Assembly (NCBI RefSeq): GCF_005696695.1
Contig: NZ_CP040006.1
Location: 240,001 to 272,000, forward strand
DNA: 32,000 bases
Source: Schaalia odontolytica
GTDB taxonomy: Bacteria; Actinomycetota; Actinomycetes; Actinomycetales; Actinomycetaceae
Reading direction: 5' to 3'
Shown here: in pieces, positions 8,116 through 25,686 of the stretch
Numbering within the stretch: position 1 is the stretch's first letter
How the letters are laid out: every line of letters begins with the position of its first letter
The notes under the pieces: model-generated
Told to the model about the DNA's origin: nothing
Databases searched by the model: none
The model's input: only the letters and a program-made list of their open reading frames with translations
Made by a program: the position numbers and the translations under genes

Positions 8116-8134
8116 CCCAGCCGTGACGCCGAGA

Positions 8135-8164
8135 GGGGGACGGAGCACGCAGGCTCCGTCCCCC
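8135..8164. terminator. Bidirectional stem-loop terminator between convergent genes
   Basis: Perfect 12-bp stem GGGGGACGGAGC (8135-8146) / GCTCCGTCCCCC (8153-8164) with a 6-nt loop. It lies between the stop at 8115 (+) and the stop at 8215 (-). Confidence 0.7.
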
Positions 8165-8214
8165 TTCGCGTGTGCACCTCCTCGTGCGCACTGTCCCCGG
8201 CCTCGTCCGGTGTG

Positions 8215-9834
8215 TTACGGCGCGGGCATGACCCCGCGACCGATCTCAAACCCGGCCGGCGCCCAGCCCGTCCCGTACGACAGACGCACCGACACCTCGC
8301 GAACGCCCGAGGCCGGCCACGCCACCGGGAGGAACCCCGTCTCGCCGGGCGCGACGTCCAGGAACGCCGGGTACTCCCACGTGACGGCTCCATCCTCGAT
8401 GACACGGCACAGGAACTCCAGGTCGGACGTCGGTGTGAAGGTCATGTGGTTGCGAACCGTCACCCCCGAGTACGAGGGCGCCACCGTCACCGGCGCGTAG
8501 TGCAGCTCCTCCGCGCGCACCTCGCTCAGCAGCGGGAAGTCCGTTTCCGCATACTCCGGCCGCGTCGGATCAAGTGCGCGGGCGGCGCGGATCTCCTCGT
8601 CCTCCTCGCCCACGTTCCACGCAATGACGCTCGGGTGCGCACGATCCCGGCGGATCATCGCCTCGATTGCCTCGTCGCGCGCGGGGCCGGACTCGTACAT
8701 CGTCGACGCCCGGCCAATGATGTACAGACCGTACAGGTCAGCCAATTCGTAGAAGCGCGCGTGCGCGGGCCCCTGCTCGATCGCGACCGCGTTCACGCCG
8801 CGGCGCTTGCACCACACGATGTCATCGAGCATGTCCTGCAGACCCACCGCGAGCCCAGTGCGACCATCGCACTCGTTGCGGCGCACGCCGCGCAGCGTCA
8901 GCGGGCGGCCTGCCAGGCGCAAGCCCTCGGGGGTCGCCGTCAGATCGCGGAAGCCCACCTGCAGGGCGATCGCGTCCTGTGTGCCCGCCTCCTCGTCGCT
9001 CAGCGTCACCACCAGCGTGTACAGCACCGGCTCCTCGGCGCTCCACGGGAGCACGTCCACGCCTCTTGCCTCGAGGTCCTCGCCGGGCGGGGCGCTCGCG
9101 GACCAGATCTCCTCCTGCTGGGCCTCGCCTAGCAGTGCGGCGCGGATCGTTGAGGTCTTCGAGGCCTCGGAGCACTCGACGCGCAGGCGCAGGGACCCGC
9201 TCGTGCCGTCGTGCGAGGCCTGCGGGATCACATCGATGACGTGCGCAGGTGGGCGAGCCTCGAGGGAGACCTCGCGGAACAGGCCGTGGCAGCACGCCGG
9301 CGAATCCATGAGCAGAACGCTGATCTCGTGCGTGTGCATCGGTTGCAGCGCATCCGTCACGTCGAAGGCTGCCGGAATGAAACCGTCCGCGCAAAAACCG
9401 ACGAAAATGCCGTCCAGCCACACGTAGAGGGGGCCGGTGAAGCCGCCGAACGTCAGCGTCATCGTCCACCCGCGCTCGCTCGCGTCCTTCAGGGGCGCGT
9501 CGAGGATGAACTCGCGACGCAGGATTGAGGCGCGAACCTGATCCGGGGCGGGTTCTCCCTGGGCCTCTGCGGCTCTGCGGGCCTCCTCCTCGCGGCGCAG
9601 CCATGCGCCGTCCATCTCCAGCACACCGGGCACCGACGTCGCCTCGAAGTCACGCTGAAGGGGGGTGCGTTTGATCAGCTCGGCAGCAGTGCCTGATACA
9701 CCCGTGACCTGCCAGGTGCTGGACAGCATTTGAAGTGGCCTGCGCGACCTCCACGTCGAGTGCACCGTCAGGCGGTTCACCGACGCCCCGGGGTCCCGTA
9801 GCCATGCAACGTCTGGTTCCGGGATGTGTTCCAT
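8215..9834 (-). CDS. Glycoside hydrolase family 2 (LacZ-like) protein, truncated to 539 aa and active-site-degenerate; possibly a pseudoenzyme or gene relic
   Basis: Clear collinear similarity to E. coli LacZ domains 1-3. PWSAEEPVLYTLVVTL matches LWSAEIPNLYRAVVEL. VGFRDL...LAGRPLTLRGVRRNE matches VGFREV..LNGKPLLIRGVNRHE. YELADLYGLYII matches YTLCDRYGLYVV. RRDRAHPSVIAWNVGEE matches QRDRNHPSVIIWSLGNE. ALDPTRPEY matches SVDPSRPVQY. The alignment then jumps straight to a domain-4-like segment (LDVAPGETGFLPV matches LDVAPQGKQLIEL). The ~160 aa carrying the nucleophile region is therefore absent. Confidence 0.6.
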   Translation of the reverse strand: MEHIPEPDVAWLRDPGASVNRLTVHSTWRSRRPLQMLSSTWQVTGVSGTAAELIKRTPLQRDFEATSVPGVLEMDGAWLRREEEARRAAEAQGEPAPDQVRASILRREFILDAPLKDASERGWTMTLTFGGFTGPLYVWLDGIFVGFCADGFIPAAFDVTDALQPMHTHEISVLLMDSPACCHGLFREVSLEARPPAHVIDVIPQASHDGTSGSLRLRVECSEASKTSTIRAALLGEAQQEEIWSASAPPGEDLEARGVDVLPWSAEEPVLYTLVVTLSDEEAGTQDAIALQVGFRDLTATPEGLRLAGRPLTLRGVRRNECDGRTGLAVGLQDMLDDIVWCKRRGVNAVAIEQGPAHARFYELADLYGLYIIGRASTMYESGPARDEAIEAMIRRDRAHPSVIAWNVGEEDEEIRAARALDPTRPEYAETDFPLLSEVRAEELHYAPVTVAPSYSGVTVRNHMTFTPTSDLEFLCRVIEDGAVTWEYPAFLDVAPGETGFLPVAWPASGVREVSVRLSYGTGWAPAGFEIGRGVMPAP

Positions 9835-10055
9835 GTAATAAAAGTAGCATTTTATGTTTAGTCATGAAATGGCATTGTTTTTTGAAATACAGGTAAATGT
9901 GCCTTGACATGCGGAATATCTACGGGTGACAAGTGGGATGGCGACCACATTCTGGGATTTATGGTCATACGGATGGACAAAAATGCCTCGTTGCCGGGAG
10001 GTGCTGTTTGGGTATAACGAGCCCCGGCCTCGTCTCTCGGGGTGCACATAAAGAA

Positions 10056-10093
10056 CCCCGGCCTCGTCCCTGAGAGTTGGAACGAGGCCGGGG
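10056..10093 (-). terminator. Stem-loop terminator downstream of the OPT transporter gene
   Basis: CCCCGGCCTCGT (10056-10067) pairs with ACGAGGCCGGGG (10082-10093) across a 14-nt loop, about 45 nt past the stop codon at 10138-10140 on the minus strand. Confidence 0.55.
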
Positions 10094-10137
10094 CTGCATG
10101 CCGCGGGGGTGAATCCCCTCGCGTGTGCGTCGCGCGT

Positions 10138-12138
10138 TTACTTCGCGGCGGACTCGCGATCCGAGTCGCGCGTGATCTTACGAGCGAAGTTGTAGAGCAG
10201 CCACGTCGCAACCGCGAAGAACACCAGGCCCAGAACGTTCGCGAACGGCGTGAAGCCGTCGCCGATGAACGGCAGCGCCAGCGGCGACTCCGAGCCCGTC
10301 GCGCCCGCGATGCCCGCGTAGACGACGCCGAACAGGGACTCGCCGACGATCAGGCCGGTGGCAGCCAGCGTGCCGAAGCGCTTCGCGCGCTCCACGTCCG
10401 CCTGCTTGTCAGCCCACCTGTTGTACAGGAAGCCAATGAACGCGCCGATCGGGATCAGGACCGTCAGGGAAGCGGGCAGGTAAATGCCCATGCCGACCGC
10501 CAGCGGAGGCAGGGCGAGCTTACCCTTCGACGCGGGGCGCAGAACCTCGTCAATGATGATGACGACAACGCCGATCGCAGCACCGATGCCCAGGAGCTTC
10601 CAGTCGATGCCGCCGCCAAGCACGCCCTTAGCGAGCGAGGAAATCAGCGAGGCCTGCGGGGCCGCCAGCGCGTCCGGTCCAGCGCCGGGAGCGCCCTGGA
10701 AACCGAAGGAGTTCTGCATGAGCTCCAGGACCGGGGGAATGATCAGCGCGCCGAAGACGACGCCGATGACCAGGGCAACCTGCTGCTTCCACGGGGTCGC
10801 GCCCACCAGCTGGCCCGTCTTGAGGTCCTGCAGGTTATCGTTCGCGATCGTCGCAATGCAGAAGACGATGGCCGAGGTGAACAGCGTGTAGGCGATGAGT
10901 GCCGTGTTCTCTTCCGTGGTCGAGCCGCGGCCGTGCACCGCCAGGATGACGACCGCCGTGATGACGACGACCAGCAGGCCGACGCCGGAGACCGGCGAGT
11001 TCGACGAGCCGATCAGGCCGGCCATGTAACCACAGACCGCCGCGACCAGCAGGCCGGCGAGCAGGATGAAGATGACCGAGACGGCAATCAGGACGGCCGT
11101 GTTGTGCTCGATCTGCGTGCCGCGCATGAACCACCACAGCAGACCTGCGATCGGAACCATGGCCACAAAGATGGAGACGATAACCCACTTGCCGGGGATA
11201 TCCTGCTCGGTGCGGTCGACCTGCGCGCCATTCTCCTTGGTGCCGCGCGAGGCGCGCAGCGACTCAGACATGCCGCGGGCGATCGGGCCCATGATCTTGA
11301 TGAGCGTCCAGATGGCGGCGACCGCCATGACGCCCGCGCCGATGAAGCGCACGTCCGACTTGAAGACCGTGGACAGGGCTGAGGTCAGATCATCCGCGCC
11401 GTCCAGCTGGCCGTTCGCGTACAGGGGCAGTAGAACGCCGTAGGAGGTGACCATGCCGATCAGCATCGCGATGCCGACCGTCATACCGACCAGGTGGCCC
11501 ACGCCGATCAGAGCGAGGGACAGGGAGGTGGAAATCATCGTGCCCGTCGAGCCAATCTTGAAAGCCGTACCAACCTCGGAGGCCACGACCTTCATGTAGC
11601 CCAGAAGCGCCATCGTGGCCGAGGCCAGGGCGCCCCACGTGATGGCCAGGAGGCCACGCTTGTTGTCCTCGCCCGCATCCTGGGCATCGCCGACCTTCAG
11701 AATCTCAGCGCCTGCCACGCCCTCCGGGTAGGGCAGGTCCGAGCCGGTCACGAGCGCGCGGCGCAGGGGGATCGAGTACATGACGCCCAGCGCACCGCCG
11801 ACCGCACACACAAACATGGTCTCCCAGTAGGGGAAACCGCTCCACCAGCCGACAATCACGAGGCCGGGGAGAACGAAGATGACCGCCGACAGCGTGCCGG
11901 CCGCCGAAGCGATGGTCTGGACGATGTTGTTCTCCTGGACCGTGTGGTCGCCCCAGAAGCGCAGAACCGCCATCGAGATGACGGCTGCCGGGATCGACGT
12001 CGCAAACGTCAAGCCGACCTTCAGACCCAGGTAGACGTTCGCGGCCGTGAACAGCAGCGTAATAATGCCGCCGAGGATGATGCCGCGGAGGGTCAGTTCT
12101 TTGAGCGACGTTTGCTTCGTCGCGTTTGGCGCAGACAC
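10138..12138 (-). CDS. OPT-family oligopeptide transporter (about 666 aa, polytopic membrane protein)
   Basis: The N-terminus (LKELTLRGIILGGIITLLFTAANVYLGLKVGLTFATSIPAAVISMAVLR) is the signature start of bacterial OPT-superfamily transporters, and there are many TM segments. I place the start at the GTG at complement 12136-12138, which has an AAAGGA Shine-Dalgarno 5 nt upstream. The longer track ORF (to 12420) would run into the tRNA gene. Confidence 0.85.
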   Translation of the reverse strand: MSAPNATKQTSLKELTLRGIILGGIITLLFTAANVYLGLKVGLTFATSIPAAVISMAVLRFWGDHTVQENNIVQTIASAAGTLSAVIFVLPGLVIVGWWSGFPYWETMFVCAVGGALGVMYSIPLRRALVTGSDLPYPEGVAGAEILKVGDAQDAGEDNKRGLLAITWGALASATMALLGYMKVVASEVGTAFKIGSTGTMISTSLSLALIGVGHLVGMTVGIAMLIGMVTSYGVLLPLYANGQLDGADDLTSALSTVFKSDVRFIGAGVMAVAAIWTLIKIMGPIARGMSESLRASRGTKENGAQVDRTEQDIPGKWVIVSIFVAMVPIAGLLWWFMRGTQIEHNTAVLIAVSVIFILLAGLLVAAVCGYMAGLIGSSNSPVSGVGLLVVVITAVVILAVHGRGSTTEENTALIAYTLFTSAIVFCIATIANDNLQDLKTGQLVGATPWKQQVALVIGVVFGALIIPPVLELMQNSFGFQGAPGAGPDALAAPQASLISSLAKGVLGGGIDWKLLGIGAAIGVVVIIIDEVLRPASKGKLALPPLAVGMGIYLPASLTVLIPIGAFIGFLYNRWADKQADVERAKRFGTLAATGLIVGESLFGVVYAGIAGATGSESPLALPFIGDGFTPFANVLGLVFFAVATWLLYNFARKITRDSDRESAAK

Positions 12139-12387: not shown

Positions 12388-12477
12388 GGTAGCGTGTCCG
12401 AGCGGCCGAAGGTGCAGCACTCGAAATGCTGTGTGGTGTCACAGCCACCCTGGGTTCAAATCCCAGCGCTACCGCCA
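12388..12477 (+). tRNA. tRNA-Ser, anticodon CGA, with encoded CCA
   Basis: Acceptor stem GGTAGCG/CGCTACC. D-loop GAGCGGCCGAA, typical of class II tRNAs. Anticodon stem CAGCA/TGCTG with loop CTCGAAA (anticodon CGA). Long variable arm (TGTGGTGTCACAGCCACCC). T-arm CTGGG-TTCAAAT-CCCAG. Discriminator G followed by CCA. Confidence 0.9.
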
Positions 12478-12480
12478 CTG

Positions 12481-12514
12481 CCGCCCGGCCCCATTGGGGC
12501 CGGGCGGTTTTGTT
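12481..12514 (+). terminator. Rho-independent terminator after tRNA-Ser
   Basis: CCGCCCGGCCCC (12481-12492), loop ATT, GGGGCCGGGCGG (12496-12507), followed by TTTTGTT. Confidence 0.8.
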
Positions 12515-12744
12515 ATGCCTAGCTGGTGTGCCGTGTTGCCGTGTTGCTTGTGGCCCCACGGGTGTTCCGGGCGCCGGAGGGCCCGGCCGCCCGCGAGGCT
12601 AGGCGACCTCACTTCGTTCGGCGCCACGCCTCGAAGCCCGCCCGTGCCCTCCGGTCCCTCCGGCGCCCTCCACACCAGTGGGGCTAGGTCGCTGATGTGT
12701 GGCGCGTCGTCTCGTAGCCCGGCCAGGCCCCGCCGCCGCCGATC

Positions 12745-12857
12745 AATTTCGCACGTAATTCTCCTGCGGCTTGTTCAAACATTGAATTTGCATCGTTGGA
12801 ATTGCAACGTTTTTGGGGTGTGTCGAAAAATGACCACGATAAATTACGTGCGAAATT
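12745..12857. repeat. Perfect 16-bp inverted repeat flanking an 81-bp AT-rich core
   Basis: AATTTCGCACGTAATT (12745-12760) is the exact reverse complement of AATTACGTGCGAAATT (12842-12857). The enclosed sequence is much more AT-rich than the window average. Confidence 0.8.
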
Positions 12858-12928
12858 TGGGAGGCGGTGGTGTCGTTGCTGCCCGCGGGCGCCGCGACCA
12901 GGCCCTGTCGACCGGGTGGCCCGGTTGT

Positions 12929-13034
12929 CTGAAACCGCTGTCGCCTTTGCGGGCGCCGGCCGAGCTTTAGCTGAAACCCCTGTCGCCTTTGCTTGCTGGT
13001 GTCTGTGTGGGAGTGAAACCGCCATCGCCTTTGT
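12929..13034 (+). repeat. Three direct copies of a 22-bp motif, phased at exactly 42 bp
   Basis: CTGAAACCGCTGTCGCCTTTGC (12929), CTGAAACCCCTGTCGCCTTTGC (12971) and GTGAAACCGCCATCGCCTTTGT (13013). Confidence 0.85.
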
Positions 13035-13076
13035 GGGCGCGAAATGGGCGTTTTTGGTGCGTTTTTTGGCTGCATT

Positions 13077-13180
13077 GGTGTTGTTGGTTTCAACGGTTGC
13101 TATTCAGGGGCGCGCAGTGGTGATGGCGGTTTCATACTGGCCTGCATCAGTGGCTGCAGAGGTGTCATTGGTTTCAAAGT
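13077..13180 (-). repeat. Three inverted-orientation copies of the TGAAACC-type motif, again phased at exactly 42 bp
   Basis: GGTGTTGTTGGTTTCAACGG (13077), GGTGATGGCGGTTTCATACT (13119) and GGTGTCATTGGTTTCAAAGT (13161). The reverse complement of copy 2 (TGAAACCGCCATCACC) matches direct copy 3 (TGAAACCGCCATCGCC). Confidence 0.75.
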
Positions 13181-13206
13181 CGCCACGTCACAGCGTCCAG
13201 TGCGCA

Positions 13207-13399
13207 AAAAAGTTCGCCCAGCAGGGCCTGGTGGTGGGTGTGAGCGTGACAAAATTCGCCCAGCGCTCGAGAAATAGCCGAAAATCGGCGTTTTATGGTG
13301 TGCTGGGCGAGTTTTGTACCGGGTTGGCCCAAGAATGCCGAGTGCTGGGCGAACTTTGTCGCGGGCCAGCAGCTGTAGGCGTCCGCGGGCGAACTTTGT
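13207..13399. repeat. Five copies of a 16-bp motif GCTGGGCGAAnTTTGT, two inverted then three direct, spaced 42/42/40 bp within each set
   Basis: Minus-orientation copies are AAAAAGTTCGCCCAGC (13207-13222) and ACAAAATTCGCCCAGC (13249-13264). Plus-orientation copies are GCTGGGCGAGTTTTGT (13302), GCTGGGCGAACTTTGT (13344) and CGCGGGCGAACTTTGT (13384). The two sets diverge around the small palindrome GCCGAAAATCGGC (about 13278-13290). Confidence 0.8.
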
Positions 13400-13507
13400 T
13401 GCGCCGTGCGCTTGGTAGCTGGGCCCCTCTACTGGCAGTGTTAACCCTTTAATGCGCAGCTAAACCCACCTAGTGGTAGCTGGGCGTGGCTGCCCACGCT
13501 CCACCAG

Positions 13508-13586
13508 GTGGGTTAACGTGCGCAGGAAAGGGCCCAGGCGGCCACCTGCTGGGTTAGGACCCCCCATCTATCGGGTTAACGTGCGC
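13508..13586 (+). repeat. Two direct copies of GGGTTAACGTGCGC, 63 bp apart
   Basis: GTGGGTTAACGTGCGC (13508-13523) and CGGGTTAACGTGCGC (13572-13586). An inverted GTTAACCC lies at 13440-13447. Related words recur at 24688-24696 and 25064-25076. Confidence 0.75.
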
Positions 13587-13695
13587 GTGACGGGCGGCCT
13601 GGTGATATGTCGTGTGCTGCGGACCAGCAGCCTCTGCGGGCGCTGCAGCCAGGCCCACGGGTCCTTCGAAGCCGTCGCGCCTCCCGGGATACGAC

Positions 13696-13725
13696 AGAGG
13701 CGGGACCCCGAAGGATCCCGCCTCT
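13696..13725 (-). terminator. GC-rich hairpin, possibly the sodA terminator
   Basis: AGAGGCGGGA (13696-13705) pairs with TCCCGCCTCT (13716-13725) across a 10-nt loop. It lies about 110 nt downstream of the sodA stop on the minus strand and has no clear U-tract. Confidence 0.3.
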
Positions 13726-13833
13726 CGTTGCGTGCGGTGGCCGCGCCGTCGGCGCCGATAAGACAGCGCTAGAAACTCAGTGCCCGAGCCTCAGCTCGGT
13801 AACAACGGCCGCGGTCGTGTCAGGCACGAACGG

Positions 13834-17471: not shown

Positions 17472-17602
17472 TCGCCGCATCAGGTGGACTTTGTGGCGTC
17501 ATTCTAGGAGTGTCGTCAGCGTGGACAGGGGAGTGCACGAGGCCGACTCCAGATGTGGGACCCCTGTGTTAGCCTGACGCCACAATCACGCGAAGGAGCG
17601 AC

Positions 17603-18997
17603 ATGGACTACGAGCTGGCCTACCGATACGGTGCCCCCTCGCGCCTGGAAGAGGGCGGCGGCCTTGCGCTGGCGACCTCGGGAGGCTCGACCCCCGAGGG
17701 GGAGGCAGCGCATCCCTTTTTCTTTTCGGGCTTCATGGAGCGTCCCGACGTGGTGGCCGCCGGTCTGCTCGCGGTCGCACGTGTGGCGCGTACCCGCTTC
17801 TATGTGCCGCCGGGCATGGTCGTCGCGCCCGGCGGAGGCCTGACTCGTATCGGGATGCTCGACCCGGTCGTGACCAGCACGGCCGAGGGCCTGCGCTTCG
17901 AGTCCTTTAGCGTCTGCTGCGGCGTGTACGCGCGGCTCGACGTGGAGGCCTCGGCCCTGGACGCCACCCACTGCGCAGTCGGCGTGACCAACGTGGATGT
18001 TAATCAGCCGCTGCGTGCCGCCCTAGCGTCGCTGCGAGCTGGGGAGCCCCTGCACCTGGGTGTGGGCGAGGAGGGGCTGACGGCCACGACCCTGGACGAG
18101 GAGGTCACGGAAGAGAAGGTGCCGCTGTCCCTGCGCTGGCTCAAGGGATTCGCGGAGACACAGATGCTCTCCTCCGCGATGATGCCGCTGCATGCGTTGA
18201 ATACCGCGCAGGCGCGCGCCTTCATCCGAGGCCTGCCCAGGTCCAGCGCGACGGGCACGGTCATGTGGGCGGGGCGGGCCGTGCGCGGTCTGCGTTTGGG
18301 GACCCGGCCTGCGCCGGGGGCCGCGTGCGTCGCCGGCCCCGAGCGCCTGCGCGTGTTCGAGCCGCTTCTTCATCTCATCACCTCGCTTGAGGCCTACGGG
18401 CCTGATGTGGATGCTGGCAGCGAGCCGGTCGCTTCCCTGTGGGTCGCCCGCCTGCCCGGCGCGCGCCTCTCCATTGGGCTCAGCCCCGCCAAGTCGCGCG
18501 GCTTCTCGGGGGAGGGTGCGGTCCTGGCGTCCCTGGGAGATCCGCGCGTCGAGGAGGACGCGGATATGCTGTCCGCCCTGCTCTCCTTCGAGCCGCGCAT
18601 CGACACGCAGCTCATGGCCGCGCGCTCCGGACTGGCCCCCGACCGGGTGGCTGGCGGCCTGGCACTCCTGGCCTCGAGTGGTCAGGTTGGCTTCGACGTG
18701 ACTGAGGGGGCCTACTTTCACCGTCCTCTGCCCGTGCGTCCCGACGCCCTCACCGCTATGCATCCGCGCCTGGCAGGGGCGCGCACGCTCATTGAACGCG
18801 GTGCGGTCACCCACGAGGAGGGGGCGCGCTTCCGTGTCGCCTCGGGCGCAAACCGCTACCGGGTGGAGGTGCCCGCCGACCCCTACGCCATCGGCGAGTA
18901 CCGCTGCACGTGCCCGTGGTGGATGAAACATAGGGGTGGGCGGGGGCCATGCAAGCATGTCCTCGCCGTCTCCACGCTGATCAAGGAGGATCAATGA
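17603..18997 (+). CDS. SWIM zinc-finger family protein (464 aa), first gene of a three-gene operon
   Basis: ATG with a GAAGGAG Shine-Dalgarno. C-terminal CxC-x16-CxH SWIM signature (YRCTCPWWMKHRGGRGPCKHVLAV). High GC3. The stop TGA overlaps the next start (ATGA at 18994-18997). Confidence 0.85.
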   Translation: MDYELAYRYGAPSRLEEGGGLALATSGGSTPEGEAAHPFFFSGFMERPDVVAAGLLAVARVARTRFYVPPGMVVAPGGGLTRIGMLDPVVTSTAEGLRFESFSVCCGVYARLDVEASALDATHCAVGVTNVDVNQPLRAALASLRAGEPLHLGVGEEGLTATTLDEEVTEEKVPLSLRWLKGFAETQMLSSAMMPLHALNTAQARAFIRGLPRSSATGTVMWAGRAVRGLRLGTRPAPGAACVAGPERLRVFEPLLHLITSLEAYGPDVDAGSEPVASLWVARLPGARLSIGLSPAKSRGFSGEGAVLASLGDPRVEEDADMLSALLSFEPRIDTQLMAARSGLAPDRVAGGLALLASSGQVGFDVTEGAYFHRPLPVRPDALTAMHPRLAGARTLIERGAVTHEEGARFRVASGANRYRVEVPADPYAIGEYRCTCPWWMKHRGGRGPCKHVLAVSTLIKEDQ

Positions 18998-21453
18998 GTC
19001 AGAAGTCGGATCCGTTCCGGCGGCCAAAAACGCTGGATGAATGTGCGGACTTTTGGAGACTGCACCTGTGGACCGAGGGCCACCCAGGCGAGTGGACACT
19101 CGATCAGGTCTACGCGCGCATGCTCGAGATTAACGAGGGCCCGCCCACGGCCCATGACCTGGACGTCAGCTCCAGGGTCACCGGTGCTTGGCTCAAGGGG
19201 ATCGGATTCTTGCGCCTGGCCGAACTGCACGGCGACCTGGCCCTCGACCACGATCAGCGGTACCTGACGGCGCTCATCGGCCTCGAACCCGGACTGCAGC
19301 TGCCCCTCATGCGTGCCGATCGGGAGCTGCGCGAGGAGCTGGTGTGGGGGATGCTGCGCCAGGAAGGTAACCGCGGCGTGTCGCTGTCCTCCTCCGACCG
19401 TTCTGCCTCGATGGGCTCGGAGCAAACGCCCGGCTGGTCGCGCACGTTCGAAGCGAGCGTCAATGAGGGGCTCATCGAACGTGATCGTCTGCTTGACGCC
19501 CTCCTGGAGATGCTGGCGGCCGACCTGCCCTCGGCACGTGCCGGGTGGTATTCGCGCACCCTGCGCCTGCTCGCCATGACCATTGACGAGGCCGAGGCGC
19601 GGCAGCCGACTCTGTGTGCCCTCATGTCGTCTCCCGTCGGGGCAACCGTGACCCTGGCGGTCGGGCACCTGTCCGCCCTCGCCAGGGCTGGTCGCCTCGA
19701 CCTGGAGCTGTTTGCGCGCAGCTGCGAGGGAGCGCTCATGGGGTCGAAGGCCAACGCACTCGCAGCCTTGACAATCCTGCGCGGTGGTCTCGAGGTCCTG
19801 AGTCCCGGCGGCATCGAACCCCTGTTGGCGATCGCGATGTCTTTCCCGCATGCGCAGGTGCAGGCTCTGGCCATCGAGCTGGCGAGTGACGCGCTGCGAT
19901 CGGGCCTCCTCGACTCCGCAGCGCTCGGCCGACTCCTGTCGGATGCGGAGTTGGACCCGCTCGTCGTCGCCACGCTCGACCTCCTCGACCCGGGGCACAC
20001 GGCGAATGGCCAGCCTGACCCCGGACCCGTCCCCGAGGAAGGTAGCGGTGGGCAGGCTCCCGCCGCCTTCTTGCCGCCTCCCCGTGAGGTGAACGACCTG
20101 GTTCCCATGAGCGCCGACGACGTGGTTGGTCGGGTCGGTGTCCTGGCGCAGGGCGCGCAGATGGGGCTCGAGTATGAGGCGCTGCTCGCGTTCCTGGCAT
20201 CCCCCGAGTACGACCCGAGTGCGCTGGAATCGTTGCGCCCGCTTGTGCGGCGCCTGACCACGCGCAGGTTTGGGTACGAGCGCATGCTCGGAACTCTCCT
20301 GCAGATAGCCCTCAATGGGGGAGGGGAGGGTGCTGAGAGCCCGCTGGCCGCTGGCACCGCCTGGTTGGAATCGGAGAACATGCCCACCCTCATGCGAGAG
20401 CGCATCATCGAGGTCGCGGGTCTGCTCGCACGCGGGCAGCGCTACCGCCTCCTGGCCACGCCCACCGACGACCGGGGAGCCGTGAATCCCCTGACGCTCG
20501 TGCGCCGTGCCCTGGACAACGGGGGCGCGACACCCCTTCCAGCCGACCTCACCCAGGCGCTGCTGCGCGTGGACACCGAGCATCCGGACTGCGCGGCCGC
20601 GCTCGTGCTCGTGGACGAGCGGGAGGCGGACCTGCCCGCCTCCGCCGTCGCCCGCATTCGCCTCGCCCTTCAAGGGGTGGTGCGCAGACGTGCCGAGGGC
20701 TACCTGTCCTCACTCTCCGTGACGTGGGAGGGGCGTCCCTCCTATGAGTCCGGGAAGCCCAAGGTCGCGCGAGACGGCTCGCCGATCTACGCATTTTTCT
20801 TCCCTCGCATCGTCGGCGTGGACACAGGTGCGACAGGACCCGAGCTGAGCGCGCTCGCGGATATTGCGAGTGCTTCGGGCGATTTTACTGCCCACCGCTA
20901 TCTCTACCCCGCGTCGGTGCGCCACTTCGCCGTCTGCCTGCTTGCCTCTCAGTGGTACGTGCTTGACCACACCCAGCTGACCTGTGAGTGCTACAGGGCC
21001 CTGTGCGAGCACGGCGGGCGCTGGGATTCGCTGTCCGCCCAGCTCCTTGGGCAGGCGATGGGCGAGCGCGAGGTCGAGTCGCGCGCGCTCGGCGTCGAGG
21101 CCCTGGCCGCCTTGGTGGCGCGCGGTGACCTCGCCTTCGACCAGGTTGTGTCTGGTTTCGAGGCCGTGGCGCACACCGTGAAACTGAACCGGTGGGCGCA
21201 GGCCTTCGGGGATCTGGGGGACGTGGACCCCCGCCTCGCGCTGGATCTGGCGCTCACGCTGCTGCCCGGGCTCGAGCGAGGGCGCACGGGCATCGGGCAG
21301 TTGCTGGGCGTCGTTACTGCACAGTACGCACGGGCGCAGGCCGAGGGATGGGCGCCGCCGCTCGGCGAGGAGTGTATCGGCTGGCTCGGCCTTTTCCGAG
21401 GGTCCTCACAGGCGGCCAAGTATGCGCGCACGCTGAAGGAGATGGGCCAATGA
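18994..21453 (+). CDS. Large (819 aa) Ala/Leu-rich, probably all-helical repeat protein of unknown function, SWIM-associated
   Basis: ATG at 18994 with AAGGAGGA immediately upstream and an ATGA overlap with the SWIM gene. Long uninterrupted frame with strong GC3 bias. I see no Walker, nuclease or other catalytic motif. The stop overlaps the next start (ATGA at 21450-21453). Confidence 0.8.
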   Translation: MSQKSDPFRRPKTLDECADFWRLHLWTEGHPGEWTLDQVYARMLEINEGPPTAHDLDVSSRVTGAWLKGIGFLRLAELHGDLALDHDQRYLTALIGLEPGLQLPLMRADRELREELVWGMLRQEGNRGVSLSSSDRSASMGSEQTPGWSRTFEASVNEGLIERDRLLDALLEMLAADLPSARAGWYSRTLRLLAMTIDEAEARQPTLCALMSSPVGATVTLAVGHLSALARAGRLDLELFARSCEGALMGSKANALAALTILRGGLEVLSPGGIEPLLAIAMSFPHAQVQALAIELASDALRSGLLDSAALGRLLSDAELDPLVVATLDLLDPGHTANGQPDPGPVPEEGSGGQAPAAFLPPPREVNDLVPMSADDVVGRVGVLAQGAQMGLEYEALLAFLASPEYDPSALESLRPLVRRLTTRRFGYERMLGTLLQIALNGGGEGAESPLAAGTAWLESENMPTLMRERIIEVAGLLARGQRYRLLATPTDDRGAVNPLTLVRRALDNGGATPLPADLTQALLRVDTEHPDCAAALVLVDEREADLPASAVARIRLALQGVVRRRAEGYLSSLSVTWEGRPSYESGKPKVARDGSPIYAFFFPRIVGVDTGATGPELSALADIASASGDFTAHRYLYPASVRHFAVCLLASQWYVLDHTQLTCECYRALCEHGGRWDSLSAQLLGQAMGEREVESRALGVEALAALVARGDLAFDQVVSGFEAVAHTVKLNRWAQAFGDLGDVDPRLALDLALTLLPGLERGRTGIGQLLGVVTAQYARAQAEGWAPPLGEECIGWLGLFRGSSQAAKYARTLKEMGQ

Positions 21454-24050
21454 CCACCCCCATGACACTGGCCGAGCGCCGCGCGGCCCTCAAACGCCTC
21501 CTCGCCGCCGGGGAGAGGACAATCGACGCCTACGAGCGGGTGTTGGAGGGGGCCTCAGAGAAGGATCGGCGCTCCCTCTTCAAGTCCGTGCCCTTTGTGC
21601 GCCTCGTCCCGCCAGCCGCCGAGCGGGCGGAAGCCGTCCCCGAGGACACGGTGTGCATGTGCGCGTTCCTGCGCGCAGCCCTGGCCGGGAGCGATGACGC
21701 CGGCGACGACTACGGAGTTCGTTGGTCGGGCCGCAGCGGAGGCGATCCTCGCGAGGGAGCGGACCTGGATCGGCTGCTCGCCGCCCACAGGTGCGGCGCG
21801 GCCGGGCGGAGCAGCAAGTGGCTCGAGGAGGCAGCCGGGAGTCCCGGAGGCATTGGCTTCTGGCACACCTACCGCTCCCTCCTGGCCGAGCGTGGAGCGT
21901 ACCTGACGTCTGCGCCCTCCCTGGAGTACTTCGCGCGCAGGATCATTCCCGCACCCCACCCCACTTCGGATGAGACTCGACTCTTCTTCGAGAAGAACCC
22001 GACCTTCCTCGACCACGAGTTCTGGCAGCTCTTCCGCGTCGAGGGTGCCCTGCCCGGCTCGGCGCTCTTCGTGTGGATGTACCGCGAGGACCCCTCTGCG
22101 CCCGGCGGTGACTTCGAGCGCCTACACAGCCAGGATCTCATCTGCTACATGGCGACGCACCTACCGCATCTGCGGCCCCGCATCCTGTCCGAATGTCTGG
22201 CCGCGCATCGGCGCGACTTTTCCGCATACAACAGTCGTGCCTTCTCGCTGGCCTGGGAGGCGCTTGAACCCACGCGCGAGGAAAAGCTCGAGGCAGCCTC
22301 GGACCTCATCGCCCTGCTTGGGGTCCAGCCCTCGCAGACGGTCACGCTGGCGCAGAAGGCTCTCCTTGGCCTCGTCGGGGAGCTCACGGTAGAGCAGGTG
22401 GGCGCGCTCGTACAGGTCAGCGCTCAGGTCCTTGCCCGCACCGAAAAGAAGCTGCTGCGCGCTCACCTGCGCCTGCTTGCCGCCCTCGTCAAGGCCCGTC
22501 CCGGGTGCGCGACCGCCGTCAGTGACGTGGTCGCTGAGGCTGAGTTCCCCCTCGACCTGCGAGATCGCGCCGCCACGCTCGTCGTGGCCCCTGATACTTC
22601 CGGAGACTCCGTGGACGAGGCCGGGGCCGGGCCTGCGGGGACGGCCACCTCCGACGCGAGCACCCAGGGAAGCGAACCCGGGGGAGGGACCCAGGCCTCG
22701 TGGACGTTCCCGGACACGCCCGCCGCGGACCTACCGCGCACCTCGCGCACCGCTGAGCTGCCCGACGATAACGACGCGGTCGTCGCTGCGTTGCACGCCC
22801 TCTTTGAGGACGCGGCCGCGGGCGCCGCCCTGCCCGCGCTCCTGATGCGCATCAGTGGCGAGGGCATCGAGCTGACGGAGGCCGACAAGGCGCTGCTCGC
22901 CGCGTACTGGAAGAGCGCGCCCAACTGGAAGGGCGCCAACCAGCTGTCCTACCTGGCCTCACGGCTCCTGCGCGACGTGGAGGTGAAGGACGCACCCGAG
23001 GCAGGTCACTTCCGCGGCTACCGGCGCAAGGGCAGCGAATGGGAGCAACACCGCGGCCCAGTCCAGCTCCTGCACGAACAGCTGCGCGTCGCATTGCGCG
23101 ACAAGCCCTACGACAAGCCGAACGGTCAGGACATGTACCGCTTCGACCCCATCCTGACCGCACCGCTGGAACCGATCCACCCGCAGTGGGAACGTCAGAT
23201 CATTCGAGCCGCCTACCAGAAGCCCGTCAGGGTTGTGCGCGGTGAGTACAAGAAGACCGACGACATGCATGAGACGTGGGTGATCCCCGGGCAGAGCCCG
23301 GCCACGGGTGCCGACTCGCTCACCCAGGCCCTCACCAACGTCGCCGGCGTCGCCCCCGAGTTCACCGGGCGCCTCCTGGAATCGGGGGACTACCGGTCGA
23401 GCGGCGTCGCCTACGCGTGGGCGGCCTGGGCGCTCCAGCACAACCCGGACATTCTGGCCGCCCACGCGATGCCCGTCCTCCAGGGTGCGTTCTTCAAGTT
23501 CCCGCAGGTCATCACCGCCTTCGAGGTGATAGTGCGCGCACTGGGACAGGGATGGCGGGCGCCGGGCGCGCCCACCTACTCGGCCCTGGCGTGGGCATCC
23601 ACCGCCGCCCAGGCCAACTACCGGGCGATCACCGCCGAGGCTATCGCGGGTCTCGCCGATACCGGCCGCTTCGACCCCGCCGCCATGGCCGAGGAGATCG
23701 GCTACCTGATGCGCAACGGGTGGTTCGGGCCCGGGAGGGTCACCCAGACACTCAGCGACTGCGCGTCCGTCTCTGCCCTGGCCGGGTATCGCGTCGCCCA
23801 GACGATCACCGCCGTGCTGCCCGCGCTGGCCGGTGTCAGAGGAGCAAATGGCATGGTCGAGGTGCTGGTGGCGCTCGCGGGCGACTACGGCATGAGGGTG
23901 AGCGTCCCCGATGAGATGCGCCCCAAGATGAAAGGATCAAGCGCGATGGCTAAGGCGCTGCGCGCGCTTGACGCGCTGCCTGATGCCCCGACTGATCTCG
24001 CGTGCGAGGCGGCTGAGGCACTCGATGCAGTCCGAGTGCGGCAGGGGTAG
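21450..24050 (+). CDS. Large (866 aa) helical protein of unknown function, apparent paralogue of the preceding gene
   Basis: ATG at 21450 with a GAAGGAG Shine-Dalgarno 8 nt upstream and an ATGA overlap. Its segment QTVTLAQKALLGLVGELTVEQVGALV...LLRAHLRLLAAL resembles ATVTLAVGHLSALARAGRLDLELFAR...ANALAALTIL in the preceding protein. There is a central acidic/Gly/Thr-rich linker. The last ~35 codons are duplicated at 25687 onward. Confidence 0.8.
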   Translation: MTTPMTLAERRAALKRLLAAGERTIDAYERVLEGASEKDRRSLFKSVPFVRLVPPAAERAEAVPEDTVCMCAFLRAALAGSDDAGDDYGVRWSGRSGGDPREGADLDRLLAAHRCGAAGRSSKWLEEAAGSPGGIGFWHTYRSLLAERGAYLTSAPSLEYFARRIIPAPHPTSDETRLFFEKNPTFLDHEFWQLFRVEGALPGSALFVWMYREDPSAPGGDFERLHSQDLICYMATHLPHLRPRILSECLAAHRRDFSAYNSRAFSLAWEALEPTREEKLEAASDLIALLGVQPSQTVTLAQKALLGLVGELTVEQVGALVQVSAQVLARTEKKLLRAHLRLLAALVKARPGCATAVSDVVAEAEFPLDLRDRAATLVVAPDTSGDSVDEAGAGPAGTATSDASTQGSEPGGGTQASWTFPDTPAADLPRTSRTAELPDDNDAVVAALHALFEDAAAGAALPALLMRISGEGIELTEADKALLAAYWKSAPNWKGANQLSYLASRLLRDVEVKDAPEAGHFRGYRRKGSEWEQHRGPVQLLHEQLRVALRDKPYDKPNGQDMYRFDPILTAPLEPIHPQWERQIIRAAYQKPVRVVRGEYKKTDDMHETWVIPGQSPATGADSLTQALTNVAGVAPEFTGRLLESGDYRSSGVAYAWAAWALQHNPDILAAHAMPVLQGAFFKFPQVITAFEVIVRALGQGWRAPGAPTYSALAWASTAAQANYRAITAEAIAGLADTGRFDPAAMAEEIGYLMRNGWFGPGRVTQTLSDCASVSALAGYRVAQTITAVLPALAGVRGANGMVEVLVALAGDYGMRVSVPDEMRPKMKGSSAMAKALRALDALPDAPTDLACEAAEALDAVRVRQG
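23945..24012 (+). repeat. Direct repeat copy 1 (inside the 3' end of the 866-aa gene)
   Basis: 62/68 identical to 25687-25754. The 44-bp core TGCGCGCGCTTGACGCGCTGCCTGATGCCCCGACTGATCTCGCG (23959-24002) is perfect. Confidence 0.9.
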
Positions 24051-24351: not shown

Positions 24352-24615
24352 TCAGTCCTCGTCGAGCTCAATGAGGTCATGGACGACGCCCTCGCCAGCG
24401 CGGTGACGTGCGATCGATTTGCGCAGGTGGCGGGCGTTCGCGGGGGACTGCATGAGGTAGACGGTCTCCATGAGGGACTCGTACTCGTCGAGGGCGATGA
24501 TGACGGCGCTCTCGTGGCCCTGTCGGGTGATGACGATTTCCTCGCGGTCGTTGACGACCTGGTCGAGGACCTCGGCGTAGCGTGCGCGCGACTCGGTGTA
24601 GGTCATGGTCTTCAT
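24352..24615 (-). CDS. yefM: YefM/Phd-family antitoxin
   Basis: MKTMTYTESRARYAEVLDQVVNDREEIVITRQGHESAVIIALDEYESLMETVYLMQSPANARHL matches the YefM/Phd family. GAGGAG Shine-Dalgarno upstream. Confidence 0.93.
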   Translation of the reverse strand: MKTMTYTESRARYAEVLDQVVNDREEIVITRQGHESAVIIALDEYESLMETVYLMQSPANARHLRKSIARHRAGEGVVHDLIELDED

Positions 24616-24675: not shown

Positions 24676-24820
24676 TAGTCGGCTGGTAACGTGCGGGAGT
24701 ACTACCTCCGTGCGGGGCCAGGTACTGCGGAACTGCTCGCACGGGACTGCTGACGCGGGACTGCTGGCACGGGGTCTGCATCGCGGCGTCCTTCACCTGG
24801 GAGGGAGAGGCCTGCACGTC

Positions 24821-24921
24821 CTGGATAGGTAGCGCCGATCTGGATAGGTAGTGCTGATCTGGATAGGTTATTTTCCTATCCAGAACGTCATAACCTATCC
24901 AGTTCGTGGTTTCCTATCCAC
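24821..24921. repeat. Iteron-like array of three direct then three inverted copies of CTGGATAGG, each set phased at 19 bp
   Basis: CTGGATAGGTA at 24821, 24840 and 24859. CCTATCCAG / CCTATCCAC at 24875, 24894 and 24913. The central perfect palindrome is CTGGATAGG-TTATTTT-CCTATCCAG (24859-24883). Confidence 0.9.
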
Positions 24922-24947
24922 TTCGTGGCCGCCCGTGCCCATACATG

Positions 24948-25018
24948 TCCGCACGTGGGCCCTTTCATCCGCACGTGGGCCCTTTCATCCGCACGTGGGC
25001 CCTTTCAACCGCACGGGG
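24948..25018 (+). repeat. Tandem 20-bp repeat, 3.5 copies
   Basis: TCCGCACGTGGGCCCTTTCA at 24948, 24968 and 24988, plus a partial ACCGCACGGGG at 25008. Each unit contains a CACGTG palindrome and GGGCCC. Confidence 0.9.
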
Positions 25019-25081
25019 GTAACGCCGCCTACGCGCAGGTCATGGGGTTTCCGTGCGTATCGAGGGGTTAACGTGCAGTCC

Positions 25082-25507
25082 TTAGTGGCCGCGGTGGCGA
25101 GCTTTCGCTTTCAGGCGGGCGAGGCGGCGTTTCTCTTCAGCTTTCTCACGTTTCTTCTGCTTGGTCGTGGAAGCTCGTTCTCGTGCCATGCGTTCGCGTT
25201 CTGCTTGAATCGCTGCCTGTGATGCAGTGGAAGGAAGCGCACGGCGGGCGAGGTGGGAAGCTTGGCGCTGTGCGCGCTTGGGGTTGTGGTGCGTCGCCTG
25301 ACGTTGGGCCATATCGGAAGCCCAAGCGACCTCGTCGAGGCGGCACAGGAGAGCGTTAGCGTGAGCGAGAAGGAACTCGTAGAACTCCGCGTCTGAGGGC
25401 TGTGCGCCGAACACGATTCTAACGGCGCGAAAACGGTCGGCCTCGTGGCGCTCAATGACACCGACCCAGAACTGACCATCGAAATATAGTGTGGACTCCG
25501 TCTTCAT
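25082..25507 (-). CDS. DUF2992 (YjdF-like) family protein with a highly basic C-terminal tail, 141 aa
   Basis: MKTESTLYFDGQFWVGVIERHEADRFRAVRIVFGAQPSDAEFYEFLL matches my recollection of the DUF2992 N-terminal signature (FDGQFWVG). ATG at complement 25505-25507 with GGAG upstream. The Lys/Arg-rich tail is KQKKREKAEEKRRLARLKAKARHRGH. Confidence 0.7.
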   Translation of the reverse strand: MKTESTLYFDGQFWVGVIERHEADRFRAVRIVFGAQPSDAEFYEFLLAHANALLCRLDEVAWASDMAQRQATHHNPKRAQRQASHLARRALPSTASQAAIQAERERMARERASTTKQKKREKAEEKRRLARLKAKARHRGH

Positions 25508-25686
25508 TACTCGTCTCCAGGTACACCAGGGTGGACCCGATGACGCTGGATTCTGCTCGGGGCAGCGACGGATGCGAGGCATCGCCCAGACTTCCTACTG
25601 GACTGTGCGGTTCGCGTATCAGGACTGACGACTCATTATACGTCCCGTGTTCCAGGGTGTTGCTACTGGACGATCGGCTTGCCGCC

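Follow-up and report, generated by a model that had tools for sequence, protein, structure and literature searches.

A reverse-transcriptase-less relative of the type XIII retron accessory module in Schaalia odontolytica, with a predicted DNA-clamp fold in its SWIM protein

Background

What might be the role of three coupled genes that encode a SWIM zinc-finger protein and two giant helical proteins? The question is raised by a locus of Schaalia odontolytica in a stretch of 32,000 nucleotides (contig NZ_CP040006.1, positions 240,001 to 272,000; hereafter the window, whose own numbering is used throughout). A first-pass annotation, made from the sequence letters, had singled out these genes, here called P1, P2 and P3, as an uncharacterised module devoid of catalytic motifs, and had likened them to proteins of the Escherichia coli yeh cluster. 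We find that P1 has a relative in the SWIM accessory protein that type XIII retrons encode and that its body is predicted to fold like a sliding clamp. The locus is best filed as a new variant, lacking a reverse transcriptase (RT), that is related to the type XIII retron accessory module and to which we attach a clamp-fold hypothesis. The finding is concrete and testable; what we propose for the function of the module is tentative.

P1 and the type XIII retrons

Type XIII retrons combine an RT with accessory proteins of two sorts (Mestre et al. 2020, PMC7736814). The first kind, cluster 114_1, carries a central Dx7[D]x4Ex30-32Dx37E motif, a DprA-like winged helix and a C-terminal CxCx12CxH SWIM finger; the second comprises one or two HEAT/ARM proteins, most commonly with a WGR-like domain (PMC7736814). 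The SWIM protein of these systems is the closest described relative of P1, a kinship that the first-pass annotation had overlooked. The PADLOC model SWIM_XIII matches P1 with an E-value of 1.7e-44 (150 bits) and was matched by all 41 of the P1-family members sampled, at best with E 1.5e-56. Residues D87, E95, E100, D132 and E170 of P1 fit the published motif exactly, with spacings of x7, x4, x31 and x37.

As a comparator we used a complete type XIII retron found in an unannotated replicon of Methylobacterium bullatum (locus L090, NZ_LR743510.1 334805-352016), where it occupies positions 4351-11379 of the locus (Table 1). Profile alignment with hhalign of the P1 family against the SWIM protein of this retron gave a probability of 99.45% and E 4e-22 over 361 columns, corresponding to P1 residues 86-460. 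The aligned portion spans the acidic motif, the helical region and the finger, and the motif positions are kept in the retron protein. P1 and the SWIM accessory protein of these retrons are therefore genuinely homologous. Because SWIM_XIII scores 150 bits against P1 and 706 bits against the retron member, we place P1 in a sister clade.

The likeness extends to gene organisation. In both cases the SWIM gene is coupled to a gene for a giant alpha-helical repeat protein, by a 4-nt overlap in the Methylobacterium retron, and some retrons pair the SWIM gene with two HEAT genes (PMC7736814). The module differs from the retrons in having no RT, in its gene order (SWIM gene first here, solenoid gene first in L090) and in its partner, which belongs to the family DUF6493. 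Neither of the PADLOC models HEAT/ARM_XIII and WGR_XIII matched P2, P3 or any of 19 diverse DUF6493 proteins, and the DUF6493 profile aligned to the L090 WGR_XIII protein with an hhalign probability of 0.5%. By these comparisons only the clamp-SWIM subunit is common to the module and the retrons; the solenoid partner has been exchanged, and the two kinds of partner have no more than a general solenoid fold class in common.

The RT was sought in several ways. No RVT_1 domain was found in any of the 18 frames of the window with a coding-like GC content at third codon positions (GC3) or in four further large open reading frames (ORFs); none was recurrent in 32 representative related loci, and none occurred among 106 flanking proteins. 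The RT of L090, used as a positive control, was readily detected. An Rfam scan of the window at gathering thresholds returned only tRNA-Ser, and the noncoding RNA of type XIII retrons may have no Rfam model. SWIM_XIII was the only model matched in PADLOC v2, so that no described defence system is complete here; a retron XIII call would need the RT.

A predicted clamp fold in P1

The alignment behind our analysis of P1 contains 41 homologues with 54-89% identity to it. Pfam recognises the SWIM finger (PF04434) at residues 419-457 with E 3e-6 and 27.1 bits against a cutoff of 19.6. The ligands C435, C437, C450 and H452 (nucleotides 18905-18958) are invariant in the 41 sequences and are spaced CxC-x12-CxH; the finger reported in the first-pass annotation is therefore real, but with a central spacing of x12 rather than x16. 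Beyond it Pfam found nothing in P1 and NCBIfam gave no match; in particular, neither collection matched PCNA_N/C or DNA_pol3_beta. PDB sequence searches with P1, P2 and P3 singly and a PDB profile search with P1 returned nothing useful and no clamp.

The AlphaFold2 model of P1, built from the 41-sequence alignment, has a pLDDT of 82.5 and a pTM of 0.84. Searched with Foldseek against the PDB it yielded 440 matches at E <= 1e-3, and PCNA, bacterial beta-clamp and 9-1-1 chains account for every one of the top 50. These have E of about 2e-8, probability 1.0 and about 290 aligned columns, with template-modelling (TM) scores of 0.60-0.65 normalised by the clamp target. Residues ~20-295 of P1 are thus predicted to form a two-domain DNA-clamp fold with four helices. 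P1 differs from sliding clamps in the lack of any sequence-level relation and in being fused to winged-helix and SWIM modules.

In sliding clamps the helices line the DNA-facing side. Each of the four clamp helices of P1 bears invariant or near-invariant arginines in the 41-sequence alignment (R60/R63/R65, R138, R178 and R248/R250), and these helices may face DNA as they do in clamps. An invariant loop, SPxKSRGFSGEG at residues 294-305, has low pLDDT and appears flexible; it joins the clamp body to residues ~304-400, which are probably winged-helix-like. This assignment rests on the secondary structure of the model and on invariant columns, and it agrees with a weak profile match to an Lrs14-like winged helix-turn-helix regulator (E 0.27) and with the DprA-like winged helix of the retron homologues.

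The acidic motif within the clamp-like body raises the question of catalysis. From a transposase-like DEDE motif, a nuclease role has been proposed for cluster 114_1, and an origin from MULE/Mutator-type transposases has been suggested (PMC7736814). P1 could accordingly be a metal-dependent nuclease with the acidic residues as its active site, restrained or targeted by the solenoids in the manner of a toxin with its regulators. Residues D87, E100, D113, D132 and E170, together with R98, R111 and N130, are invariant in the 41 sequences, down to about 54% identity; the published pattern is matched, and its positions are kept in the L090 retron protein. Retron effectors are, in addition, often nucleases. 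Against this, the predicted fold is that of a sliding clamp, not an RNase H-like DDE domain, the top 50 structural matches all being clamps, and no nuclease family was found by Pfam, NCBIfam or PADLOC. Sliding clamps are not known to have catalytic activity.

In the model, beta strands of the first clamp domain carry the DEDE residues. Judging from the strand register, E100 and R111, and likewise R98 and D113, are probably cross-strand neighbours, which would mean a salt-bridged patch on one face of the sheet. We therefore read these residues as a probable charged surface patch, not as an RNase H-type active site, and consider a nuclease distinctly unlikely. We know of no counterpart of this acidic invariant patch in clamps. 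The MULE/Mutator transposases do resemble P1, in that a domain with conserved acidic residues is followed by a SWIM finger at the C-terminus, but the acidic residues of P1 sit in a clamp-like fold, and the P1 locus is syntenic. Neither terminal inverted repeats nor the edges of a transposon were seen, no search aimed at them having been made. The first-pass claim that the proteins hold no catalytic motif stands insofar as Pfam and NCBIfam found no Walker motif, kinase or known nuclease family; P1 is not motif-less, given its invariant acidic motif and clamp-like fold.

P2 and P3 as distant paralogues

Pfam places DUF6493 (PF20103) on residues 136-254 of P2 with E 3.8e-13 and 49.7 bits, above the gathering threshold of 25; on P3 the same family scores 24.8 bits, just below the cutoff. 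At the C-termini there are weak matches to DUF7824 in P2 and DUF7825 (23.5 bits) in P3, and P3-type homologues carry precomputed PF20103 and PF25149 assignments. Direct BLASTP of P2 against P3 found nothing significant. The two family profiles, by contrast, align with an hhalign probability of 99.8% and E 7e-29 (P2 105-817 against P3 179-843), and the alignment includes the TVTLA signature. By these profiles, P2 and P3 are old, distant paralogues of two types, DUF6493 with DUF7824 (P2) and DUF6493 with DUF7825 (P3).

Because an initial homologue search with P2 returned only proteins at least 92% identical to it, that set was replaced by a profile of distant partners, giving a 91-sequence alignment. 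The resulting AlphaFold2 model (pLDDT 86.9, pTM 0.81) is an all-alpha solenoid with a disordered linker at 337-358 and a small beta insertion at 574-608. Foldseek against the PDB found no close solved relative, only generic HEAT/ARM solenoids at low TM (karyopherin-beta2, PR65, importins and proteasome Rpn2). The first-pass annotation had thus judged the large proteins well: their HEAT/ARM-like helical nature is supported by the P2 model, their paralogy by the family profiles even though BLASTP cannot see it, and their DUF6493-like kinship by Pfam, clearly for P2 and at the borderline for P3. It had also held that none of these proteins has an established function, and our profile, structure and literature searches found none. 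No paper mentioning DUF6493 came up in the literature search, and no function or structure is attached to the family; RefSeq routinely annotates the adjacent pair as 'SWIM zinc finger family protein' and 'DUF6493 family protein', which are names only.

The proposed likeness to YehQ, YehI and MolR fared less well when we aligned profiles with the E. coli K-12 yeh proteins. YehQ against the P1 family gave a probability of 5.9% over a 43-column stretch, the finger only, and in YehQ the finger lies near the N-terminus. The DUF6493 profile against YehI (DUF4132) gave 0.07%, YehM was likewise unrelated, and Pfam found no DUF4132 (PF13569-type) match on P2 or P3. The two neighbourhoods are alike in that a SWIM-containing protein occurs near very large helical proteins (yehLMPQ/yehH-yehI in E. 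coli). The yehLMPQ cluster also has a MoxR ATPase and a von Willebrand factor A (vWA) protein, and neither is linked to the SWIM-DUF6493 module. The analogy was rejected at the family level, the finger alone being common to YehQ and P1.

A solenoid partner could also mean that the module acts on proteins. It might be a nucleic-acid-independent scaffold, an adaptor that captures clients for regulation or proteolysis and uses the clamp body as an oligomerisation platform. Eukaryotic SWIM and HEAT proteins can capture protein clients. HEAT solenoids are typical protein binders, the structural matches of P2 are karyopherins, PR65 and Rpn2, all three proteins are acidic overall, and SWIM domains can mediate protein-protein contacts (PMC7736814, and general knowledge). 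Against such a scaffold stand the winged-helix region and the conserved arginines on all four clamp helices; the closest relatives work beside an RT that makes msDNA, a multicopy single-stranded DNA; no protease, ubiquitin-like or chaperone gene is linked in the 32 loci or the 28-locus flanks. We regard it as quite improbable.

Distribution and gene arrangement

We counted 2,453 scored homologues of P1 in a 90% cluster database. A 50% representative library of 1.8 billion representatives yielded 1,764, 1,206 and 587 clusters at E cutoffs of 1e-3, 1e-10 and 1e-30, respectively; with few exceptions these proteins are full-length at about 450 aa. A pattern-based scan of 185,579 GTDB species-representative genomes gave 210 relatives. 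The module, chromosomal or plasmid-borne, ranges over Actinomycetota, Alpha- and Betaproteobacteria and Bacteroidota; the pair of SWIM and DUF6493 genes is found on annotated plasmids of Chondrinema (Bacteroidota), Asticcacaulis (Alphaproteobacteria) and Streptomyces. A phage origin or carriage was rejected, as neither 50,697 phage records nor IMG/VR held a match.

In the 85 loci that we compared, the SWIM gene nearly always adjoins DUF6493 genes, whose number (one to three copies per module) and order vary. The clade of the window has SWIM-P2-P3, Achromobacter and Propionicimonas have SWIM-P3-P2, and Rothia mucilaginosa has SWIM-P2-P3-P3. Paeniglutamicibacter, Frondihabitans and Microbacterium combine the SWIM gene with one P2-type gene, two metagenome-assembled genomes (MAGs) have P2-SWIM-P3, and three loci are divergently oriented. 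Among single-partner modules, several have the P2 type alone, and in some other loci BLAST revealed just a partner of the P3 type. A DUF6493 gene stands next to the SWIM gene in 32 of 32 representative loci, where no other family recurs, and a co-conserved fourth gene, sought in these loci and in the flanks of 28 loci, was not found. The 4-nt start/stop overlap recurs in most other lineages and in the annotated plasmid pairs.

Pauljensenia sp. (L007) has P2 and P3 100% identical to the window proteins and P1 at 98%. Between Actinobacteria and Achromobacter, Comamonas and Diaphorobacter, P1 is still about 60% identical and the solenoids about 30%; these values imply horizontal transfer, and of the block as a whole. 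Between pairs of loci the identity of P1 correlates with that of its partner (r = 0.85), the partner diverging 1.54 times faster. What evolves as a unit is the clamp-SWIM protein plus one, two or three DUF6493 solenoids; this block has passed through several phyla by inheritance and by transfer, accompanied by no RT, WGR protein, MoxR or vWA gene.

The triad of the first-pass annotation is co-conserved, but its core is the SWIM gene with one DUF6493 gene. Actinomyces sp. ICM47, a close relative (L020, L015) in which P3 is dispensable, has kept SWIM and P2; P3 is absent from L020 and undetected in the shorter L015. In L020 a YoeB/YefM pair follows directly after P2. As for decay in relatives, which the first-pass annotation had considered, frames are intact in most loci, but genes are fragmented in Rothia aeria and split at L016, L023 and L034; split genes are seen in a few MAGs. 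In the complete genome of Rothia aeria (L072, AP017895.1) the SWIM gene is split and several P3-type genes, all in fragments, come after it, an array in decay. A Propionicimonas MAG, 5N093, has two SWIM-P3-P2 modules on different contigs (L044, L045) with similar upstream regions.

Operon structure and boundaries

Direct reading of the sequence confirmed the three ORFs, both ATGA overlaps and the Shine-Dalgarno sites of the first-pass annotation; an AAGGAG-type ribosome-binding site precedes each of the three starts. P1, P2 and P3 form a single self-contained operon with a GC3 of 0.81-0.83, typical of real genes in the window (overall GC about 0.68). The 4-nt stop/start overlaps favour equimolar synthesis of the three proteins. 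Where the unit had been placed at 17472-24050, its end stands, while coding begins at 17603, position 17472 being merely the first base past an upstream hairpin (Table 1).

Table 1. Coordinates of the module, its parts and the comparator retron
Feature	Sequence	Position	Strand	Remarks
GC-rich hairpin	Window	17440-17452/17459-17471	+	Directly 3' of the upstream methyltransferase gene's stop codon; bounds the module on its upstream side
Putative promoter and leader	Window	17565-17598	+	Conserved TGTGTTAGCCT; -10-like TAGCCT at 17570-17575; Shine-Dalgarno AAGGAG at 17593-17598
P1 ORF	Window	17603-18997	+	464 aa
P1 clamp-like body	Window	17660-18487	+	Residues ~20-295; predicted two-domain PCNA/sliding-clamp-like fold (AlphaFold2 and Foldseek)
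P1 acidic motif	Window	17861-18112	+	D87-x7-E95-x4-E100-x31-D132-x37-E170; within the clamp-like body
P1 helical region, winged-helix-like	Window	18512-18802	+	Residues ~304-400; model secondary structure and invariant columns
P1 SWIM module	Window	18806-18991	+	Residues ~402-463; Pfam PF04434
P2 ORF	Window	18994-21453	+	819 aa; start overlaps P1 stop (ATGA, 4 nt, 18994-18997)
P3 ORF	Window	21450-24050	+	866 aa; start overlaps P2 stop (ATGA, 4 nt, 21450-21453)
WGR_XIII	L090	4351-7593		1080 aa; E 1.5e-251
SWIM_XIII	L090	7590-9254		4-nt overlap with WGR_XIII; E 4.8e-213, 706 bits
RT_XIII / RVT_1	L090	9571-11379		E 6.6e-176

The hairpin had been called a strong terminator. Its arms are perfect 13-bp GC-rich stretches, the surrounding 76 nt fold with -44.6 kcal/mol (z = -3.5), and the relative L018 shows compensatory substitutions in the stem. 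It has no T-tract, for which reason the consensus terminator scan did not call it. We take it for a probable factor-independent terminator lacking the U-tract.

Upstream of P1, the TGTGTTAGCCT block and the Shine-Dalgarno sequence are the only non-coding sequence kept as far as Schaalia meyeri and A. graevenitzii, and the upstream region of the latter has an identical TGTGTTAGCCTGA. Conservation of this block suggests that the operon has its own putative promoter at the TGTGTTAGCCT/TAGCCT element. No shared regulatory motif, and no LexA/SOS box, was found in the upstream regions of the module loci beyond -10-like TAnnnT elements. A 16-nt inverted repeat, TTGTGGCGTCATTCTA / TAGCCTGACGCCACAA (17491-17506 / 17570-17585; 88% complementary, 63 nt apart), brackets the region, overlapping the -10-like element, and may represent an operator or leader structure.

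Selection and synteny

We estimated ratios of nonsynonymous to synonymous substitution rates (dN/dS) against relatives, ignoring some SOD and DUF808 values that were alignment artefacts. For P1 the ratio is 0.05-0.09 against most relatives of the clade and 0.14 against S. meyeri; for P2 it is 0.16-0.33 and for P3 0.16-0.35, compared with 0.07-0.42 for neighbouring genes. The module genes are thus under ordinary purifying selection, weaker on the solenoids. In the comparisons with L012 and L014 the synonymous divergence (dS) of the module genes is about 0.41-0.52, and the adjacent methyltransferase gene in these genome pairs has about 0.19, a roughly twofold difference. Weaker codon bias may be the cause (GC3 0.81-0.83, most neighbours having about 0.9), or alleles may have been exchanged by recombination.

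Across the Pauljensenia/Schaalia clade the gene order is methyltransferase, P1-P3, a toxin-antitoxin pair, DUF2992 and ABC-F. The toxin-antitoxin pair, YoeB/YefM, had been described as a cassette inserted into the end of gene 3. It is instead a convergent neighbour that lies 32 nt past the intact P3 stop codon and is present throughout the clade, and Schaalia meyeri, which has no such cassette, has an identical P3 C-terminus.

Other flanks are mostly metabolic. In L005 the module lies between secG and pgl/opcA/zwf, and in L004 beside nadABC. Pfam assigned 149 families to the 106 flanking proteins of 28 loci, none more than three times and mostly transporters and metabolic enzymes. PADLOC returned scattered ShosA/PsyrAT, AbiD, mad and DpdF-like matches among the same proteins, a count with no background to compare it with. 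MoxR (AAA_3) and vWA genes, whose co-occurrence the first-pass annotation had proposed to check, were absent from the window ORFs scanned, from the 32 representative loci and from the 28-locus flanks. With synteny held clade-wide and flanks of this kind, the accessory-island or defence context proposed for the locus is weak.

Might the module then be a housekeeping or semi-core accessory of DNA metabolism and not an immune system at all? The clamp-like SWIM protein and its solenoid scaffolds would in that case help to replicate, repair or segregate the chromosome, perhaps as an adaptor mimicking or bridging the replicative clamp. The clade-wide synteny from methyltransferase to ABC-F, the ordinary selection and the metabolic flanks keep such a role alive; the clamp is a classical fold of replication and repair, and type XIII retrons themselves follow host phylogeny and have been suggested to be domesticated (PMC7736814). 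Other observations fit it poorly. The distribution is patchy (about 210 relatives in 185,579 genomes, and 1,764 clusters among 1.8 billion representatives), the module has crossed phyla by horizontal transfer and travels on plasmids, the number of solenoids varies, P3 is lost in ICM47 and the array decays in Rothia aeria, and no SOS box or shared regulatory motif was found upstream. On balance we think this role rather unlikely.

The same data bear on whether the locus is a decaying remnant of a type XIII retron that has lost its RT and noncoding RNA and is becoming a pseudogene cluster. P1 is indeed homologous to the retron SWIM protein, and fragmented relatives exist (Rothia aeria L072; split genes in L016, L023 and L034). 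Yet dN/dS is 0.05-0.35 and most loci have undamaged reading frames, a uniform full-length architecture is shared by 587 clusters at E <= 1e-30, the partner is DUF6493 rather than WGR-HEAT, no RT occurs in 32 diverse loci, and coupling is conserved. The idea was rejected on selection, family size and the different partner; it is largely refuted and scarcely credible.

Proposed function

Our preferred reading, which we hold tentatively, is that P1, P2 and P3 make up a DNA-engaging sensor or scaffold complex for the surveillance or control of foreign or aberrant DNA, with P1 as an RT-independent sister of the accessory protein that type XIII retrons carry. P1 would be the conserved nucleic-acid-engaging core, contacting DNA or a DNA/RNA structure through its arginine-bearing clamp helices and its winged helix. 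Its basic SWIM finger would dock the acidic solenoid or solenoids. These, diverging about 1.5 times faster and varying in copy number, could be recognition or regulatory subunits, as HEAT-type sensors are elsewhere. Because no enzyme domain is present, we propose that the complex acts stoichiometrically and not catalytically, by binding, occluding or recruiting on DNA.

That the three proteins form a stoichiometric complex we infer from their translational coupling, the co-variation of their identities and the charge of the parts: the isoelectric point (pI) of the SWIM segment of P1 is 9.0, against 5.0 for P2 and 5.7 for P3, all three whole proteins being acidic overall. Four observations are best fitted by a surveillance role: the module is patchily distributed, it has been transferred horizontally, its paralogues have expanded, and it is kin to the retrons. 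A defence role is plausible.

Several observations weigh against this reading. P1-P3 contain no effector enzyme family by Pfam, NCBIfam or PADLOC, and, taken as a whole, the clamp-like region is slightly acidic. No PADLOC model matches the DUF6493 partners, nor are they detectably related to the WGR-HEAT partner of the retrons, and the P1 family is absent from the phage collections. All three genes are under purifying selection similar to that of their neighbours, within the Pauljensenia/Schaalia clade the locus keeps its synteny and descends vertically, and metabolic or transport genes predominate around the 28 diverse loci, with only scattered matches to defence models. The literature search, finally, found no functional study of type XIII retron accessory proteins; nor did it find a description of a clamp fold for the retron XIII SWIM protein or a published function of the module.

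A bolder form of the surveillance idea is possible, though unlikely. The module might be an undescribed enzyme-free system in which a PCNA-like SWIM protein forms a ring or a one-sided clamp and exchangeable solenoids sense proteins of the invader or gate the clamp, with type XIII retrons as derived forms. P1 would assemble on foreign or aberrant DNA, and replication would be blocked or host nucleases recruited; an RT/msDNA cassette would have captured this older clamp-SWIM core, giving rise to the type XIII retrons. If this were true, the retron XIII 'nuclease' would be a clamp-fold binder of DNA or msDNA.

Whichever reading holds, the analysis ties a widespread orphan pair of genes (about 1,800 clusters at 50% identity, in at least three phyla) to the least understood class of retrons. 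The type XIII class gains the structural hypothesis that its DEDE protein has a predicted clamp-fold, winged-helix and SWIM organisation and is not a transposase-like nuclease. If this is correct, the module offers a simple RT-free model for the role of the type XIII SWIM subunit, would be a new use of the PCNA fold outside replication, and would account for the HEAT-type giants that accompany SWIM proteins in bacteria. If it is a housekeeping system instead, it would still be a new DNA factor of a clamp-like kind. Abundant commensals of the human mouth (Pauljensenia/Schaalia, Rothia and Arachnia) are among the carriers, so a phenotype is experimentally accessible.

Other features of the window

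Downstream of the module, a repeat tract at 24728-25019 lies between yefM (24352-24615, reverse strand) and the DUF2992 gene (25082-25582, reverse strand). It contains a 14-nt unit repeated 3.3 times and a 20-nt unit, TCCGCACGTGGGCCCTTTCA, repeated 3.6 times at 96% identity; a 19-nt unit, CTGGATAGGTAGCGCCGAT, repeated 2.5 times, faces inverted units containing CCTATCCAG, with 53-nt arms that are 75% complementary. The tract looks iteron- or operator-like.

Two further stretches stand out at some distance upstream. Downstream of tRNA-Ser(CGA) (12388-12477) there are about 1.3 kb of non-coding DNA (12480-13830) with several repeat families at 42-nt spacing and many long imperfect inverted repeats. 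At 3550-8115 the window encodes a 1521-aa protein with two BcrAD/BadFG ATPase domains and DUF2229, of the CoA-enzyme activase type, which adjoins a ModA / ModBC-type ABC transporter with a TOBE domain.

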